Below, one piece after another: positions 835-10,953 of a stretch of DNA of 19,828 nt (position 1 is its first letter; each line of letters opens with the position of its first letter). The notes beneath the pieces were generated by a model, which did no database searches, was not told the origin of the DNA, and was given only the letters and a program-made list of their open reading frames with translations. The position numbers and the translations under genes are program-made. The DNA comes from a virus (lineage: Duplodnaviria > Heunggongvirae > Uroviricota > Caudoviricetes). Location: the IMG/VR virus record IMGVR_UViG_2874920711_000008; one strand, given 5' to 3'.

Positions 835-1509
835 ATGAATTCCCAGACAACAAAAGATATTCCCTGCTTCCGTTCTTATTTGCCTGATGCCCTGCGTTTA
901 AGATTTGAAGATAAACTGACCATCCGGGCCATCGCTCAGCGTCTGGGTCTCAGTCATTCCACAATACATACGCTTTTTCAGCGATTTCTTGCATCCGGTA
1001 TCGCATGGCCATTGCCCGATTCAGTTTCATTCGCTCAACTTGACGCCATCCTTTATGCCAACAGAAAGAAGGAATTAACAGAGCCTCAAATCAGAGAAGG
1101 CTCATGGCGAAAAGAACGGCGAACCAGCTATAGCCGTGAATTTAAGGTCCGTCTGGCTAAGCAGGCGTTACAGCCTGGGGCTGTTGTTGCCCGGATCGCC
1201 AGAGAACACGATATCAATGATAACCTGCTGTTTAAATGGAAAAGCCAGTACGAGGACGGCTTACTGAGCGATGATGACATACAGGAATGCATGCCTGTCC
1301 CGGTGGCACTGACTGATACGCCGGAGCCGACCAGACCAGTTACAAATCCCTTCTGGCGTAACAAGCATGATGAGCGCCCTGAGGGGGCTCCCGGAAACGT
1401 CCCACGGTGCGAGCTGCATCTTAAATCAGGTGTGGTAAAACTGTTTGACCCTCTCACTCCGGAACTGTTACGGGCGCTAATCCGCGAAATGAAAGGGGGT
1501 ATCCGATGA
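835..1509 (+). CDS. tnpA: IS66-family accessory protein TnpA (orfA); true start may lie downstream of 835
   Basis: The C-terminal ~130 aa (RRTSYSREFKVRLAKQALQPGAVVARIAREHDINDNLLFKWKSQ...) look like IS66 orfA; stop overlaps the tnpB start (ATGA at 1506-1509). The N-terminal ~90 aa is an extra predicted HTH-like segment. No clear SD before 835. Confidence 0.65.
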   Translation: MNSQTTKDIPCFRSYLPDALRLRFEDKLTIRAIAQRLGLSHSTIHTLFQRFLASGIAWPLPDSVSFAQLDAILYANRKKELTEPQIREGSWRKERRTSYSREFKVRLAKQALQPGAVVARIAREHDINDNLLFKWKSQYEDGLLSDDDIQECMPVPVALTDTPEPTRPVTNPFWRNKHDERPEGAPGNVPRCELHLKSGVVKLFDPLTPELLRALIREMKGGIR

Positions 1510-1852
1510 TAACGCTGCCGACCGGTACCAGAATCTGGATCATCGCTGGCATCACAGATATGCGTTGTGGCTTCAATGGCCTGGCTTCGAAGGTGCAGAA
1601 CACGCTGAAAGATGACCCGTTCTCCGGGCATATCTTCGTCTTCCGGGGCCGCAGTGGCAAAATGGTGAAAATACTGTGGGCCGATCGTGACGGGTTATGC
1701 CTGTTCGCCAAACGCCTGGAACGGGGCCGCTTCGTCTGGCCGGTGACCCGGAAGGGAAAGTGCACCTGACGCCAGCTCAGTTATCCATGCTACTGGAGGG
1801 GATCGCGTGGCAACATCCCAAACGGACAGAACGGCCTGGCATCCGGATATAA
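1506..1852 (+). pseudogene. tnpB: IS66 TnpB, reading frame broken near 1750-1760
   Basis: MITLPTGTRIWIIAGITDMRCGFNGLASKVQ...ILWADRDGLCLFAKRLERGRFVWP matches the IS66 TnpB pattern. The ORF stops at 1769, but the next frame continues VHLTPAQLSMLLEGIAWQHPKRTERPGIRI to a stop at 1850-1852. The break sits in CCCGGAAGGG. Confidence 0.8.
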
Positions 1853-1871
1853 CCCGTGATAAAACAAGGGA

Positions 1872-3427
1872 ATGAACAATGAACTCCCCGATGATATTGA
1901 GCTGCTTAAAGCCATGTTGCGTAAGCAACAGAGTCGGCTTCGACAGTATGCCTGTCAGGTCGCGGGCTATGAGCAGGAAATTGAACGGCTGAAAGCGCAA
2001 CTCGACAGGTTGCGTCGTATGTTGTTCGGCCAGAGTTCAGAGAAAAAGCGTCATAAGCTTGAAAATCAGATCCGACAGGCAGAAAAACGACTGTCGGAAC
2101 TGGAAAACCGGCTGAACACAGCCAGAAATCTTCTGGAAGATGCATCGTCAGTCACAGATTCACCTGACACCAGTCCCCGTCAGAAAACCCGATCGCCAGT
2201 AAGCCTGAATCCCCGGGAGACACATCGCCTTCTGCCTGCTGAAACCAGTTGCCCGGCCTGTGGAGGTGTTCTGAAAGAAATGGGGGAAACAATCTCAGAG
2301 CAACTGGATATCATTAATACCGCCTTTAAAGTTATCGAAACCATACGTCCCAAACTGGCCTGTAGCCGGTGTGATGTCATCGTTCAGGCACCACTTCCCC
2401 CTAAACCGATCGAACGCGGTTATGCCAGTGCAGGGTTACTTGCACGGATCCTGGTCAGCAAATATATGGAACATATCCCTTTATATCGCCAGTCAGAAAT
2501 ATACGCGCGACAGGGCGTGGAGCTGAGCCGTAATACCATGGTGCGCTGGGTATCAGAAATGGCAGACAAACTCCGTCCTCTGTATATAGCGCTGAATGAC
2601 TATGTTCTGGAGGCAGGAAAGGTGCACGCAGATGACACTCCGGTGAAAGTACTGGCCCGGGGAACGGAAAGACGAAAACGGGTCGTCTGTGGGTATACGT
2701 CAGGGATGATCGTAATGCGGGTTCATCCCTGCCGGCAGCCGTCTGGTTCGCGTATTCGGCAGATCGCAAAGGAGAACATCCGCAGCTCCACCTGGCAAAG
2801 TATCAGGGCGTACTGCAGGCTGATGCCTATGCAGGTTATAACGTACTGTACGAAACGGGCCGGGTGAAGGAAGCCGGGTGCCTGGCCCACGCCCGCCGAA
2901 AAATCCATGACGAGGATGTGCGCCGTCCGACAGAAATGACTCAGGAAGCGCTCAGACGGATAGCAGAGTTATACGACATAGAAGCGGAGATACGTGGCAG
3001 TCCGGCAGAGGAACGGCTTGCAGTCAGAAAAGCCAGAAGCGTCCAGTTGATGCAGTCGTTGTACGACTGGATACAGTTGCAGAGGAAAACGCTGTCGAAA
3101 CATGCGGAGATGGCGAAGGCGTTCGACTATATCCTGAATCACTGGAATGCGCTGAACGAGTTCTGTCGTGACGGCTGGGTGGAAATAGACAACAACATCG
3201 GTGAAAACGCGTTACGATCGGTGGCGGTTGGAAGAAAAAATTATCTCTTTTTCGGCTCAGACAAGGGAGGAGAAAGTGCGGCGATCATCTACAGTCTGCT
3301 GGTCACCTGCAAACAGAACGAAGTGGAGCCGGAGGACTGGTTGCGCGAAGTGATCGAGAAGCTCAATGACTGGCCGTCGAACCAAGTGCATGAACTGCTG
3401 CCCTGGAACTTCTCGTCTGTAAAATAA
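1872..3427 (+). pseudogene. tnpC: IS66-family transposase TnpC, one frame break near 2655-2660
   Basis: The N-terminal ORF (1872-2867) is recognisable up to ...[11 protein letters not shown]; the C-terminal part continues in another frame as [62 protein letters not shown]... and joins ORF 2864-3427. The break is in a GCCCGGGG run. Combined length is ~518 aa. Confidence 0.85.
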
Positions 3428-3460: not shown

Positions 3461-3766
3461 GAAAAAGCAGAAACCAAAGGCGCGAAAGCCGCAAAGAACA
3501 GCGCTGCACAGGAAAACCCGGCACCGCTGGCAGACGTTATTGTGGCTGACGGTCAGGCGAATGAACCACGTCCGGCTGAAGACCCGGTTGCTGTACAGGG
3601 TGACGCCCCTGTCCGGCTGAACGTCAGGGCCGTGTCTGAAAACGGGTTCTGGCGCTGTGGCCGTTTCTGGTCACATATCGGTGAGGATGTGGCGGTGAGC
3701 GCTGCGGTTGCCACCCGCCTGATGGCAGAACCGAATCTGATTGTCCGGGAAGCGGAGAAAGGCTGA
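3461..3766 (+). pseudogene. 3' fragment of a phage structural gene (likely the gene upstream of Mu gp36), cut by IS66
   Basis: An open frame runs from the IS boundary (...EKAETKGAKAAKNSAAQENPAPLADVIVADGQANEPRPAEDPVAVQGDAPVRLNVRAVSENGFWRCGRFW...) to a stop at 3764-3766 that overlaps the next start. It has no credible native start; the tracked ORF begins at a GTG at 3542. Confidence 0.4.
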
Positions 3767-4203
3767 TGGGATACATCACGCAGGAAGACCTGTTACGCGC
3801 GGACGGCAATCTTGTCTGGAACATGGCGATTAACCGGGAAACCAACGGGCTGGATGAAGACAAAATCCGTCAGGCCATCAGTGATGCGGAAGCGGAAATT
3901 GATTCGTTTCTGTCCCGCCGCTACCAGCTGCCGCTGGGGGTGACGGAAATCCCGCGCCCGCTGCAACGCGTGGCGGTATCGCTGGCGTTTTACTGGTTAT
4001 CAGAGCGTGACAATCAAATCACGGAGCTGATCCAGAAACGCTACGACGACGCCATTAAAACCCTGCGTGAAATGGCGAACGGCACCCGTGACCTGGGCCT
4101 GCCGACGTATGCCACCCCGGCAGAAACCGACAACGGGAAAATTATTGTGGTGGGTGCCAATGCCCGGCTGTTCACCCGTAACAACCTGAAAGGGGTGCTG
4201 TGA
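3766..4203 (+). CDS. Mu gp36-like phage protein (DUF1320 family)
   Basis: 145-aa ORF, ATG overlapping the upstream stop (TGATG), just upstream of the tail genes. Family assignment is from memory. Confidence 0.55.
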   Translation: MGYITQEDLLRADGNLVWNMAINRETNGLDEDKIRQAISDAEAEIDSFLSRRYQLPLGVTEIPRPLQRVAVSLAFYWLSERDNQITELIQKRYDDAIKTLREMANGTRDLGLPTYATPAETDNGKIIVVGANARLFTRNNLKGVL

Positions 4204-5353: not shown

Positions 5354-5518
5354 GCCAGCGCGGGAAAACGTCCGTGTCCGTAAACCGGATGGCGCACATT
5401 TATCCCGGAAGGGGAACGTCTCAACGTCTGCGCTTACTGGCTGCGCCGTGAAGCCGAGGGAGATGTGGAAATAACCACACTTCCGAAAAATAACAACAAA
5501 ACCAGAGGGAAAAAATAA
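5334..5518 (+). pseudogene. Small (~60 aa) phage protein upstream of the sheath gene, frame break near 5405-5415
   Basis: ATG at 5334 gives MEQKLIKPARENVRVRKPDGAHLS..., then the next frame reads EGERLNVCAYWLRREAEGDVEITTLPKNNNKTRGKK with a stop overlapping the sheath ATG (TAATG at 5516-5520). The break is in CCCGGAAGGGG. Confidence 0.3.
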
Positions 5519-6992
5519 TGTCGCTGGGTTCCATTCCTGATGATATCCGCGTCCCGCTTGTCTGGATCGATATCGACAATTCACAGGCGCTGGAGGGTGC
5601 ATCCGCGCAAAGCCGAAAAATTCTGGTCATGGGCCATGCGGTATCGTCCGGCAGCGCAGACGCCCTGTCACTGACCCGTATCACCAGTGACAGCCAGGCA
5701 GACCAGCTTTATGGCAAAGGGTCGATGCTGGCTGAAATGCTCAAAATGCTGCGTCGTGCCAACACGTACACGGAAACCTGGGCGATGCCGGTTGCCGCTC
5801 CTGAAGGCGCTGCCGCAAAAGCCACGCTGACCGTGCTGGGTACAGCGACCGAAGCCGGAACGGTGGCACTGCTGATTAACGGTGTGTCCGTTCAGGTGAG
5901 CGTGAGCGCCGGGGATACGAAGGAAAACATTGCAAAAGCCATTGCTGATGCGGTGACGAAAAAGCCTGCCACGCAGGTGGCCGCTGCGGTGAAGGATGAT
6001 GCCACGGATACCGTGGAGCTGACCGTGAACTGGCACGGCGTCACCGGCAACGGTGCCGACGTTCGCCTGAACTACCACACCGGTGAAGCCTTCCCGGCAG
6101 GTGTGAAGGTGACCGCAACCGCGTTTACCGGCGGCACCGGGACACCGGAAATGGCAGACGCCGTTGCGGCCATCGGCCCGGAGTGGTTTACCGATATCAT
6201 CGCCCCGTTCACCGACACGAAAAGCCTGAACACCCTGCGTGATGAACTGCTGAACCGCTGGGGCCGCTCAAAATGATGGAAGCGCAGCTGTGGACGGCGT
6301 TTTGTGGCACGCACGGGGAAACCGGCACGTTTGGTGAAACCCGCAATGACTGGCTGATTAGCTGCATCGGCACCAACCTGTCGCCGCATCCGGCGTGGAT
6401 GTGGGCCGCGTCATACGGCGCAACGGCAGCGTATCACCTTGCCATTGACCCGGCGCGTCCGCTTCAGACGCTGGTCCTGACCGGCATTCTGCCGCCTGCG
6501 CGTAATGTTCGCTGGGATATGCCGGAACGTAACCTGCTGCTGCATGACGGCATTGCCACGCACATGGTGGACGCCGGGGATAACGTCTGCATCGAGCGTG
6601 AAATCACCATGTACCGGGTTAACCAGTACGGTGATGCGGATGTGTCGTATCTTGATGTGCAGTCACCCGCCACGCTGGGCCGTATCCGTTACATCATTAA
6701 AAACCGTTTCTCGAACCGTTATCCGCGCCACAAGCTGGCGGATGATGACGTGCTGGACTCGCTGGATGCGGGGCAGCCGGTGATGACGCCGAAGCTGTGC
6801 ACTGCAGAGCTGCTGGATATCTGCCAGACCGAACTTCTCCCGGCGGGCCTTGTGGAAAACTTCAGCGATTACAGGGACACGCTTCAGGTGACACGCGACA
6901 GCAGCGATAAAAACCGCCTGAACTTTATCTGCCACCCGAATCTGGTGAACCAGTTGCGTGTGCTGGCAGGCCTGATTCAGTTCAAGCTTTAA
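5518..6992 (+). pseudogene. L: Contractile tail sheath protein (Mu L-like), split into two ORFs near 6270
   Basis: ORFs 5518-6276 (252 aa) and 6273-6992 (239 aa) are adjacent, same strand, together ~491 aa, followed directly by the tube gene; they join through a one-base frame change. Confidence 0.8.
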
Positions 6993-7001
6993 GGGGGCCA
7001 C

Positions 7002-7358
7002 ATGGCAAAAATTCTTGGCATGGCGACCATTCGCGTGAATGGCCGCGAAATTAAAACCGAGGGGAAATCCACGCTGAATCCGGGCGGCTTCAGCCGCACC
7101 CAGCATATGGGCGGCGGCAAGGTCTGGGGTATCTCCAGCAAGATGGCCTCGCCGTCCATCAAGGTAACCATTGCGGCGGCAGCGGATATGGACGTGATTG
7201 AAATCAGCAACTGGGAAGATGTCACGGTGATGTTCTACGGCGACAACGGCCTGAACTACATGATGACGGGTTCCGCCACGGATAACCCGGCAGAGCTGGA
7301 CGAGGATTCCGGCACCATCAGTGCCAACTTTATCGGTGAAAAATGCGTGAAGGTGTGA
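7002..7358 (+). CDS. M: Tail tube protein (Mu M-like)
   Basis: 118-aa ORF immediately after the sheath gene (MAKILGMATIRVNGREIKTEGKSTLNPGGFSRT...); size and position are canonical for a myovirus tube. Confidence 0.75.
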   Translation: MAKILGMATIRVNGREIKTEGKSTLNPGGFSRTQHMGGGKVWGISSKMASPSIKVTIAAAADMDVIEISNWEDVTVMFYGDNGLNYMMTGSATDNPAELDEDSGTISANFIGEKCVKV

Positions 7359-7359
7359 C

Positions 7360-7755
7360 ATGGCCGCAATGGAATTTGAACTGAAACACGGGCTTCTGAC
7401 CGGCAAAGGCACGGCAGATGAAACCCTGCATAAAACCGTGAAACTGCGCGAACTGACCGCCAGTGATGTGATTGATGCGCAACTGGCCGCAGAACGCGTC
7501 GTCATGGGCGGGAACGGAAAGGCGGTGGCCTACTGTTCTGAGGTGCTGATGGGACTGGAGATGATGCGCCGTCAGGTTGCGTCAATCGGTAATATCCCCG
7601 GCCCGCTGGACATGAAACAGCTGCGAATGCTCCACCCGGCAGACCTTGAGCTTATCAGCACGAAAGCGGCTGTGCTGGATGACATGCTTGAGGAGGTGGC
7701 AACGCGGGGGCGAACTGATGCCGCTGGCGTCGGCACTGATGAACCTGCTGGTTAA
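7360..7755 (+). CDS. Tail assembly chaperone (Mu gp41-like)
   Basis: 131-aa acidic ORF between the tube and tape-measure genes, the conserved chaperone position. Confidence 0.6.
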   Translation: MAAMEFELKHGLLTGKGTADETLHKTVKLRELTASDVIDAQLAAERVVMGGNGKAVAYCSEVLMGLEMMRRQVASIGNIPGPLDMKQLRMLHPADLELISTKAAVLDDMLEEVATRGRTDAAGVGTDEPAG

Positions 7756-7855
7756 CCTGTCTTCGCGATTCAGCATTCAGTACCTGGAACAGCTGCCCCT
7801 GCAGCAGTTGTTCCGCCTGATAAAGCAACTGGAGAAACAGCATGGCAACAGGTAA
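7646..7855 (+). CDS. Alternative-frame extension of the tail assembly chaperone (candidate frameshift product, G/GT-like)
   Basis: An ORF in the +1 frame overlaps the chaperone 3' end, encodes a helical-looking peptide (...LMPLASALMNLLVNLSSRFSIQYLEQLPLQQLFRLIKQLEKQHGNR) and ends just inside the tape-measure start (7842). Confidence 0.4.
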   Translation: MSLSARKRLCWMTCLRRWQRGGELMPLASALMNLLVNLSSRFSIQYLEQLPLQQLFRLIKQLEKQHGNR

Positions 7856-9682
7856 CCGTCTCAGCACGGAAATCATGATCAACCTTGCCGGGAACCTGAC
7901 CGCCAAAGCCCGGCAGTACGGTGCAAACATGTCGCAGTTCGCCCGGAACAACCAGAAGGCCATGCGCCTGGTCAAAGCCACAACGGAGGCTGCCGGGCGC
8001 AGTCTGGATGCGCTTGGCAACCGCTACACGGCGATGATTGCCGGGTTCGGTGGTGGTATGACCCTTAAAGGCCTGACAGATTTTGATGCGCAAATCCGCC
8101 GTGCGGGTACAAATGCAAAACTGACCGATGAGCAGGTATCCCGTTTAAGAAAAAACATCCGGGAAACCGCCAGAATGTCAGACATTCGCCTCAGTGCCCA
8201 GGTCTTACTGGAAGGCCAGGATGCACTGTATGGCCTGACCGGTAAGCCGGAATTTGTTGAAAAAAACATCCGCAATCAGGGCTGGCCACGCAGGCATTCG
8301 GGACTGCGCCACAGGATGCCGCGGCACTGATGGCACAGATGTCCGAAAAACAGATTGAAGCGCCTCAGGAGGTTGAAGGCATGTTCGACCGCTTCTACCA
8401 CCAGTTTTCCATTGGTTCGGTTGGTGTGGATCAACTGGCGCGTGTATCAGCAAAACTGTTTTCGATTTATACCGGTGGTGGCAAAGAGGCGATAGCCCAG
8501 TTGGGGCACTTGAACAGATGCTGGCAAAAACAACCGGCTCTGCGGATGAAGCGGTGACCGCGCTGAACAGTATCTGGAGTGAAGTCACCCGAAAAGACAA
8601 TATCAAGTTTCTGAAAAGAAACGGGGTTGATGTGCTTGATCCTGTCACAGGAAAACCCCGTCTGCCTTATGACGTAATCAGAGACGTTGTCAGGCGGGCA
8701 AAATTTAATGAGCAGAACTTGCAGGATGTTTTCGGGGATACTTCCATGCGTGGATTAAGGGCACTGCTCAGTGAAGACGCCCTTCAGCTAACAGAAAAAA
8801 TGATTTACGCCCCGGTTGAATCCGGTGCCATGAGAAAAGCTGCGGAGAAAAACGCCCGGAGTTTTCAGTCTGCGATGCAGTCCCTGAAGAATGAATATGA
8901 GGTTTTTGCTGAAAAAAATCTGGCAAAACCCGTTCAGGACCTGGCGGATGCCATCAACAGCGTGGACCAGAACTGGTTGCAGGTCGGTAAATATATGGCA
9001 ATTGCGCTGGGTGGCATTATCGCCGTACGTAAGACGTACAAGCTCGGTAAAACCATCCACGACATCATGAATCCCAAAGGGAAAGGCAAAGGGATACCCG
9101 GCGGTATTACGGATGTTTTCGGCTCCGGCGTGATGCCGGTGTATGTGGTCAATATGGGCAGTGGCGGGATGAACGGCAATGTCGGTGGTCTGCCGGATGC
9201 GCCGGATTCATCACGCAATCCCGTAACCCACGCAATCCACGAGGTCCGGGTAACCGCGGAGGTAATGCGGGCAAAGGCGCTGGCATCATCGCCGGTGCCC
9301 TGGAATTTTACGATTTTCTGACCACGCAATACGCCCTGCCGGGTGAGATTGACAGTCTTACAAAATCCGTGGCCGGTGATGCCAGCGCCAGCCCGTGGGA
9401 GCGCGAGTTCGCGCAACAAAGCCAGGATAACCAGAAAGCGCTCGAGTCCGTCTGGCGTAAGGTAACGGACTGGTTTAATTCGCTGGGTGACAAGAACATT
9501 GCCGACCCGCGACCGTGGGCAGGTATGCAACCCACACAGAATTATCCTTTCCTTCCGCAACAATTGCAGGGGAAATCCGTGTGGTGGTGGAAGGTGATGC
9601 CCGCGTGAAAAGCGTCAGAGTGGATCAACCCGGCGTCAGACTCAGTGCGCAGGCTGGCGTCACCAGCGTGGAGCAGGGTTAA
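7842..9682 (+). pseudogene. Tail tape measure protein (Mu gp42-like), split into at least 4 ORFs
   Basis: Co-linear ORFs 7842-8330, 8330-8557, 8518-9321 and 9369-9608 in frames 0, 2, 1, 0, plus a final stretch ...VVVEGDARVKSVRVDQPGVRLSAQAGVTSVEQG ending at 9680-9682 (TAATG overlap with the next gene). Total ~613 aa. The adjacent frame reads cleanly across the first break (...GLATQAFGTAPQDAAALMAQMSEKQ...). Confidence 0.75.
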
Positions 9683-10953
9683 TGACAACGAGCAACGGTA
9701 AATGGGACGGGCTGCGCGACGCCTCGTTTCGTGGCGTCCCCTTCTTTCTGGTGGATACGGAGGGCACCGGTGGTCGTCGTGCCATTCCCCGTGCTTATCC
9801 CCGGCGTGAAACCGCCTGGACGGATGATAACGGGGCCGTTCCGGGGCAACAGCAGATTAACGCAAAGCTGCCAGGTAAAAACTTCCGGGATGATTTAAAC
9901 GCCCTTTTAGATGCGCTCAATACCCCGGCCCGGCGAGCTTGTCCACCCGTGGTTCGGGATACAGACCGTACAGGTTGGCAAGGTCACCCATCGCCTCTGC
10001 ACGGAGGAAGACGGCATTGCGTATGTCACCTTTGAAGTGTTTGAGGCAGGCGAGCGCCTGTTCCCGTCTGCGGCGGATAACACGCAGCAGGAAGTGCTGA
10101 CAGGCATTGATGCGGTGAAAGCCGCCATTGACGATGGCGACTGGTTCGGCGCACTCGACGGGCTGGGTGACATGGCCGACAGTTTTCTGGCCGATATGGA
10201 AAACCTTGTGGCTAACCTGCCCACGTTACCGGCAGCACTGAATCAGTGGATGGACAGGCTGAAGCATTTTAAGGCGATGGCCGGAACCCTCATTGCCACA
10301 CCGGGGCGTCTGGTCAGTGAGCTGTCAGCACGGGTGGAAGATATTGCGGGCCTTGTGACGGAACCACCCGAAGCACTGGCGGTTTACACGACATTACGCA
10401 ACCAGTGGGCCGGAGAACGTGCCAGGCAGATTGCCACCGGCGCACTGCCGGAAGATATCACCGTGAAGCCCGGCAGCGTGGCAGACGGCAACCCGGCTTT
10501 GCCATCGGGCTGTCACCGGATTATCAGCCGGTATCTGACAGCCTGCAAAAGAACATTGACGACTTCCGCCAAGTGGTTGTGCTGGGAGCCCTGCTGGGAC
10601 AGGCCAGTGCCGTGGCCTCGATGACGTTCGATACCCGTGATGCGGCGTTATCTGCCGGTGACACGCTGGCGGCTGAACTGCATGAGCAGGCGGTGGCGGC
10701 GGTGGAAAACAACCAGCGGACATTGTGGCGAACGCTGCGCGATTTACGGCAGGCCGTGATTACGGATGCCCGCGAGCGTGCCGCCCGTCTGCCGGAAACC
10801 CGGCAGGTGACGCTGACCACAACCACCTCTGCCGCATTGCTGGCATGGCGCGAGCATGGTGACACACGCCGACGGGATGAAATCGTGCAGCGTAACCGCC
10901 TGCGTCATCCGTCATTCATCCTACCGACGCAACCTGTGGAGATCACCGACTGA
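9682..10953 (+). pseudogene. N: DNA circularisation protein (Mu N-like), frame breaks near 9925 and 10490
   Basis: The N-terminus MTTSNGKWDGLRDASFRGVPFFLVDTEGTGGRRAIPRAYPRRE matches the DNA-circulation N-terminal family, and ...PGELVHPWFG... continues in the next frame. Three ORFs (9682-10035, 9911-10624, 10405-10953) join through breaks in CCCCGGCCCGG and AACCCGGCTTT. Confidence 0.75.

Follow-up and report, generated by a model that had tools for sequence, protein, structure and literature searches.

The tail assembly chaperone gene of a Mu-like prophage very probably carries a programmed -2 ribosomal frameshift site of the type known from phage Mu. The window that we analysed is a stretch of 19,828 nucleotides (IMG/VR virus record IMGVR_UViG_2874920711_000008), and the site is the slippery octamer GG_GGG_CGA (GGGGGCGA) at positions 7706-7713 of the plus strand. 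In the zero frame, the codons involved are CGG (7705-7707), GGG (7708-7710, in the P site) and CGA (7711-7713, in the A site), within the context ACG CGG GGG CGA ACT (T R G R T); the +1 frame reads this region as CGC GGG GGC GAA CTG. The octamer lies in phase 1, and from there 49 nt lead to the end of the zero-frame stop codon. Mu has the identical octamer in the same codon phase, in the context ...GAA CGG GGG CGA GTG... (1850-1857 of Mu locus L004). Judged by its sequence, the window site is homologous to that of the -2 frameshift in Mu gp41, which has been characterised by experiment; the mechanism has already been described, and the one mildly new element would be a conserved upstream Shine-Dalgarno-like sequence, a candidate stimulator of a bacterial -2 shift.

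The window contains the tail module of a Mu-like prophage, which shares 98% identity with an E. coli FDAARGOS_943 prophage over 7.5 kb. Around the site the genes run tail tube, chaperone, tape measure, as they do in Mu and in E. coli prophages that have been annotated. The order is fixed on the upstream side by the tail tube gene (7002-7358, plus strand; Pfam Tail_tube PF10618, E 1.3e-38), annotated as 'phage tail tube protein' in E. coli relatives. It is followed by the chaperone gene, which occupies 7360-7755 on the plus strand and encodes, in what we call the zero frame, a 'G'-like product of 131 aa belonging to the Mu gp41 family. This protein matches Pfam Gp41_Mu PF23746 over residues 8-118 (E 4e-37, 127 bits against a cut-off of 27), Phage_TAC_7 as a second Pfam family, and PHROG 508, 'tail assembly chaperone'; it is 43.5% identical to Mu gp41 (tblastn, E 3e-16). 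The Gp41_Mu domain ends at residue 117/118, which is the slip site. Downstream on the same strand, the tape-measure gene begins at ATG 7842 behind a ribosome binding site, GGAG, at 7831-7834. Relatives annotate it as 'phage tail tape measure protein', and its end, near 9700, is approximated from an intact homologue of 1857 nt; in the window it appears as several ORFs (7842-8330, 8330-8557, 8518-9321 and onward). A megablast search of 6900-8400 against the phage collection gave no match; to reach Mu, a search at the protein level was required.

The original prediction started from an ORF in the +1 frame that overlaps the 3' end of the chaperone gene and stops just inside the tape-measure gene, with a GGGGG run in the overlap. 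Both the ORF list and the sequence bear this out. The ORF runs from a TTG at 7646 to 7855 on the plus strand (69 aa), in the +1 frame relative to the chaperone ORF at 7360-7755; the overlap is 110 nt long (7646-7755), and the stop codon, TAA 7853-7855, lies 14 nt inside the tape-measure gene. The TTG start is merely mechanical, the +1 frame being open from 7616. The GGGGG run, at 7706-7710, forms the core of the slippery octamer. Taken by itself, the overlapping ORF is no more than expected by chance, because 80 ORFs of at least 30 aa are found in 6.5 kb of the G+C-rich window and the octamer occurs once there against 1.12 occurrences expected. It is conservation that marks the ORF and the octamer as non-random.

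The relatives comprise Mu, D108, SfMu, Yersinia Mu-like phages, Klebsiella phage Kp4866-3, Shewanella MuM16-2, Vibrio martha and 1.028.O, Pasteurella Pmp9, Alteromonadaceae B23, three E. coli prophages and some 160 IMG/VR loci. Reduced to 85 unique chaperone-plus-extension sequences and 16 further unique contexts, they amount to 101 unique relatives, a phylogenetically non-independent sample dominated by one enterobacterial clade. The octamer is present in phase 1 in every one of them (85/85 and 16/16), even though chaperone protein identity falls to about 40% across the set. In each case, too, a zero-frame stop codon follows 13-49 nt 3' of the octamer, and the +1 frame stays open for 100-145 nt past that stop, ending at or near the start of the tape-measure gene. 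Comparison with Mu and its relatives, proposed in the original prediction as a search for a conserved slippery site and an extension ORF, thus recovered both, the site being an octamer rather than a canonical heptamer. Homologues with one uninterrupted chaperone ORF of about 165 aa, which the same prediction named as the evidence that would count against it, were absent from the 101 unique relatives.

Conservation of the site exceeds what the protein sequence would ask for. In the 85 unique relatives, R116 is encoded by CGG in 84 and AGG in one, G117 by GGG in all, and R118 by CGA in all. Elsewhere in the protein, columns of Gly, Arg, Leu, Ser, Val, Ala and Pro that are at least 90% conserved use two to six synonymous codons, with entropies of 0.4-1.75 bits, and the conserved Gly and Arg columns alone use two to five. 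Per-position information is 2.0 bits across the octamer, falling to near zero at positions -2 to -8 and at +8. In the Arg-Gly-Arg codons it is the nucleotides themselves that are fixed, not just the amino acids.

The segment that a frameshift would add, the 'T'-like extension, spans 7712-7855 on the plus strand, with 47 codons from GAA 7712 to AGG 7850-7852 followed by the stop codon TAA 7853-7855, and all relatives have this +1 (equivalently -2) frame open. In pairwise comparisons past the zero-frame stop, synonymous changes make up 47% of the differing codons when these are read in the +1 frame, as against 14% and 4% in the other two frames. The extension peptides follow a common pattern, G-[ED]-L-x-P-L...R-F...L-x-Q-L-P-L-R-Q-L, and a profile of the enterobacterial extensions matches one built from the Mu, Pasteurella and marine extensions with 96.6% probability (hhalign, E 5e-10). 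When the conceptual fused proteins of the window and Mu are compared, they align colinearly through the junction (BLASTP, E 2e-25). The extension belongs to PHROG 38797, a family of 'unknown function' (E 2e-33); a search for a Pfam family found none for the extension, and a search for a solved structure found none matching the fused protein. Comparison of these sequences indicates that the extension truly codes for protein, that it does so in the +1 frame alone, and that it is homologous to the extension of Mu. The site, its phase, the geometry of the frames, conservation down to the nucleotide, the signature of coding sequence and the homologous extension were all read from this locus or from its relatives.

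The usual type of chaperone frameshift, a -1 slip of the lambda G/GT type, does not occur here. From 7707 the -1 frame reads GGG GCG AAC TGA, closing after three codons, and beyond this point it is open only over 7743-7820. The canonical -1 mechanism is impossible because such a shift would terminate at TGA 7716-7718, and G_GGG_CGA does not fit the X_XXY_YYZ pattern of the lambda heptamer; a canonical -1 site at the end of the chaperone gene was ruled out on both counts. The original prediction had suggested a programmed frameshift of the G/GT kind, which holds in that the site is a Mu-type signal, but its canonical -1 site falls with the TGA codon. It had also remarked on the unusual +1 direction. 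Entry into the +1 frame is correct, and what looked like an oddity of this sequence is accounted for by the documented Mu mechanism, a -2 slip.

Xu, Hendrix and Duda are said to have described, in 2004, the -2 frameshift of Mu gp41 on GG_GGG_CGA, a report known to us via citing papers and a GenBank note. The note, in the Mu GenBank record, is attached to a joined CDS (Mu_56) and reads 'verified -2 translational frameshift in PMID 15469818'. Mu is also mentioned as a user of -2 frameshifting in PMC5009743, its efficiency is given as about 2.2% in PMC3498833, and PMC3458567 refers to tandem -2 slippage on GG GGG CGA with a tRNA-Arg of anticodon ICG in the A site. Our own literature search for the octamer string returned only irrelevant matches, such as ribosome binding sites in Burkholderia phages.

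On this model, most ribosomes would translate 7360-7755 to yield the 131-aa chaperone, which corresponds to gpG of lambda and gp41 of Mu. At the start of slippage, the P site would hold tRNA-Gly paired with GGG 7708-7710, and the A site tRNA-Arg (anticodon ICG) paired with CGA 7711-7713, a rare codon. In a small fraction of cases both tRNAs would move back two bases, to GGG 7706-7708 and GGC 7709-7711, after which decoding would resume at GAA 7712 in the +1 frame and continue to TAA 7853-7855. The predicted fusion product of 165 aa (118 + 47) would read ...ATRGR-ELMPLASALMNLLVNLSSRFSIQYLEQLPLQQLFRLIKQLEKQHGNR. If the pair works as gpG/gpGT of lambda does, the N-terminal part that both products share would bind the tape-measure protein and the extension would recruit the tail tube protein; a fixed low ratio of the 131-aa and 165-aa products would presumably be needed for tail assembly. 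Tandem slippage and an efficiency of about 2% are taken from the Mu literature, and the functions of the two products, like the role of the upstream GGAGG, are what we infer. The -2 direction, too, is carried over by analogy from Mu, whose chaperone is only about 43% identical to that of the window.

The window has one feature that Mu lacks, and it bears on direction. An internal Shine-Dalgarno-like element, GAGGAGGT (7690-7697, plus strand, with GGAGGT at 7692-7697), is a candidate 5' stimulator by virtue of its predicted duplex and its conservation. Its predicted pairing with the 3' end of 16S rRNA, at -12.3 kcal/mol, is the strongest in the gene, where the background minimum is -7.4, and an element of -6 kcal/mol or lower stands at the same place in 78 of 85 relatives, that of the Mu group being weak. 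The core of the element is a GGRG island at -14 to -11 (7692-7695 in the window), which includes two third-codon positions (G in 51/52 and 49/52 unique contexts). The island is kept in nearly all non-Mu relatives, the Mu/D108/SfMu group being without it. It persists while the residue it encodes shifts from Glu to Gly, and the preceding codon, whether for Ser, Thr, Leu, Ala, Met, Gln or Lys, always ends in G. The 3' end of the Shine-Dalgarno-like element lies 10 nt upstream of the P-site codon GGG 7708. Such elements are spaced 9-14 nt from the site in -1 shifts and 3 nt in +1 shifts (PMC5009743), and a backward shift is therefore favoured here, because a spacing of 10 nt falls within the former range and not at the latter value. 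The upstream GGAGG may thus be a stimulator of backward slippage.

The main competitor of the -2 slip is a +1 shift at the same site, in which the P-site tRNA-Gly would move from GGG 7708-7710 to GGC 7709-7711 with the A site waiting on CGA, giving a 164-aa fusion that reads ...TRG-ELMPL.... We consider this improbable, though it is the alternative that survives best. Since +1 and -2 shifts enter the same frame, sequence alone cannot separate the two directions, and a slowly decoded A-site codon is a classic stimulator of +1 shifts; here the rare A-site codon CGA is invariant. However, the identical octamer in Mu is reported, in the sources cited above, to shift by -2, and the two G residues 5' of the GGG codon (7706-7707) are kept in 52 of 52 unique contexts; these are needed for re-pairing after a -2 slip but not after a +1 slip. 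The spacing of the Shine-Dalgarno-like element, 10 nt from the P-site codon, also departs from the 3 nt typical of +1 sites. A +1 site of the prfB/RF2 type would combine such an element 3 nt upstream with an A-site codon that is either slow or a stop. With the element 10 nt away, that arrangement is absent at the window site, and CGA, a rare sense codon, is only a loose fit to the A-site half of it.

It is less probable still that the extension is a separate small gene, starting at its own ATG 7718 with GGGGG 7706-7710 serving as its ribosome binding site. That ATG belongs to the +1 frame and follows the G-run by 7 nt, D108 carries the stretch as a gene of its own, '41.5', and PHROG 38797 is a stand-alone family. 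The Met encoded by ATG 7718 is not conserved, however, being replaced in relatives by Val, Thr (ACG), Lys (AAG) or Leu/Trp, and a ribosome binding site would have no need of the invariant CGA or of the exact, invariant phase that the octamer keeps with the upstream gene. In Mu, moreover, the fused product is annotated as verified in the GenBank record.

We give next to no credence to the idea, raised in the original prediction, that the G5 run was mis-called and that the true sequence is either a canonical -1 site or a continuous ORF of about 165 aa. A general suspicion of homopolymer errors was well founded elsewhere in the window. Relative to near-identical references, nine single bases are deleted (5404, 6260, 8279, 8503, 9220, 9569, 9927, 9929 and 10492), all of them in G or C homopolymers (G5 to G4, G4 to G3, C5 to C4, C4 to C3), and three are cases of G5 read as G4. 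The deletions split the sheath gene (5518-6276 and 6273-6992), the tape-measure gene (8279, 8503, 9220 and 9569) and the DNA-circularization gene, a pattern that fits systematic homopolymer under-calling rather than natural pseudogenes. At 7706-7710, however, the suspicion fails. The region 7340-7900 shows no indel relative to three complete E. coli genomes, the stretch CGCGGGGGCGAACTGATG being invariant. Between the window and two IMG/VR contigs that match it at 99.85% identity over 3.4 kb there is one mismatch, together with four single-base gaps; all of these lie outside 7706-7713, where the site is identical. The G5 run and the zero-frame stop recur in 101 of 101 unique relatives, which come from many independent projects and include Mu, none with a continuous ORF, and the -1 frame is closed by the TGA discussed above. 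Comparison on this scale indicates that G5 at 7706-7710 is genuine and not a homopolymer error. Slippage of RNA polymerase on the G5 run, to give a shifted mRNA, is equally hard to credit, for although a homopolymer run does stand at the junction, the known bacterial cases involve long A/T runs of about 9 nt (PMC5009743), G5 is short, and an invariant CGA and a fixed codon phase would have no role in such a process.

For the -2 slip, a second candidate stimulator lies downstream, a possible G+C-rich hairpin at 7715-7733 (plus strand, -11.1 kcal/mol) that starts 2 nt after the A-site codon. It is a weak candidate. Similar hairpins occur in the enterobacterial clade, being weak or absent in Mu and the marine phages, and a conserved downstream RNA structure was unsupported by the z scores, which were -0.37 for the fold in the window and -1.3 on average over 55 contexts. 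A consensus structure of 14 sequences 3' of the site came to -0.54 kcal/mol, with little covariation. We suggest, tentatively and with more doubt than conviction, that in the enterobacterial clade the -2 slip is boosted by the upstream GGAGG and possibly by the downstream G+C-rich hairpin as well, both without a counterpart in Mu. If true, dnaX-like 5' and 3' stimulators would here be seen for the first time in a bacterial -2 frameshift cassette, whose efficiency could be well above the 2% or so of Mu.

The closest known system is the pair formed by Mu gp41 and its frameshift-extended form (Mu_41 and Mu_56). The two loci share the octamer, its codon phase, the Gp41_Mu family, the gene order, a zero-frame stop soon after the site and a homologous extension in the +1/-2 frame. 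They differ in several details. Mu gp41 has a 20-residue N-terminal insertion that is missing from the window chaperone (the two being about 43% identical), and its zero-frame tail after the site is 7 codons long, as against 14 in the window. The Mu extension stops 15 nt before the start of the tape-measure gene, whereas that of the window overlaps the start by 14 nt. The strong Shine-Dalgarno-like GGAGG 10 nt upstream in the window is not found in Mu, and the possible G+C-rich hairpin downstream is weak there.

Lambda gpG/gpGT shares with the window a logic of two products with a common N-terminus, made in a fixed ratio from a gene just upstream of the tape-measure gene. Lambda uses a canonical X_XXY_YYZ heptamer and a -1 shift, however, and the likeness is one of logic and geometry. 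The E and E+E' proteins of P2 are likewise a tail assembly chaperone pair made by a -1 frameshift. In lambda, neither product of the pair is found in the virion (PMC5009743). The E. coli dnaX gene has a Shine-Dalgarno-like element 5' of its site and a stem-loop 3' of it; the window resembles it in the former (at about 10 nt here, within the range of 9-14 nt) and possibly, with its hairpin, in the latter. In contrast, the slippery sequence of dnaX is A_AAA_AAG, its shift is -1 and its efficiency is about 50%, whereas the stimulators in the window are only predicted ones and the hairpin is without statistical support. Frameshifting by -2 is also known from arterivirus nsp2TF and from Trichomonas vaginalis virus 1 (PMC5009743), but these involve eukaryotic ribosomes and other slippery sequences and stimulators, and they are evolutionarily unrelated.

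These observations have consequences for annotation. The predicted 165-aa frameshift product is routinely missed by automated annotation, which in the RefSeq E. coli prophages and several phage records compared here gives either the short chaperone only or the extension as a separate hypothetical protein. The RefSeq E. coli prophages (3461-3956 in both L001 and L003) carry only a short 'phage tail assembly protein', with the frameshift product absent, and D108 has the equivalent stretch as the separate hypothetical gene '41.5' (1862-2008 of L006). The 'unknown function' label of PHROG 38797 is part of the same systematic gap for the -2 product. A G5 run in the overlap of two ORFs in low-quality sequence is not necessarily an error, and the one described here, a slippery site, should stay uncorrected. 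The invariance of GG_GGG_CGA over about 100 diverse Mu-like elements offers a simple diagnostic for a rare bacterial -2 frameshift, and the conserved upstream GGAGG is a testable candidate stimulator.

The prophage in the window may be defective or poorly sequenced, and the signal could be out of use in this host, since an IS66-family element occupies the place of the expected head genes and nine frameshifting deletions lie in neighbouring genes. The element (835-3427) consists of an HTH_Tnp_1 ORF at 835-1509 and an IS66 transposase split into 1872-2867 and 2864-3427, and it sits directly 5' of a Mu gp36-like gene (3766-4203), in the position expected for head genes. At the left end, 1-813 of the minus strand, there is a host gene with a TPM domain, and the prophage appears to be truncated on that side. 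A related prophage in E. coli UMNF18 is degraded too; it has a partial sheath gene right after the major head gene (2440-3093 of L002) and a baseplate gene annotated as frameshifted (7063-7501). It seems that more than one host carries only the remnant of a Mu-like prophage of this clade.

One further length difference in the window, 12 nt in frame at 8967 in the tape-measure gene, lies between direct repeats, CCAGAAC...CCAGAAC. The 12 nt are present in E. coli FDAARGOS_943 and missing from the window and from the two 99.85%-identical contigs (L017 and L019). Because both contigs share the absence with the window and FDAARGOS_943 has the 12 nt, this difference is a natural length polymorphism and not an error.
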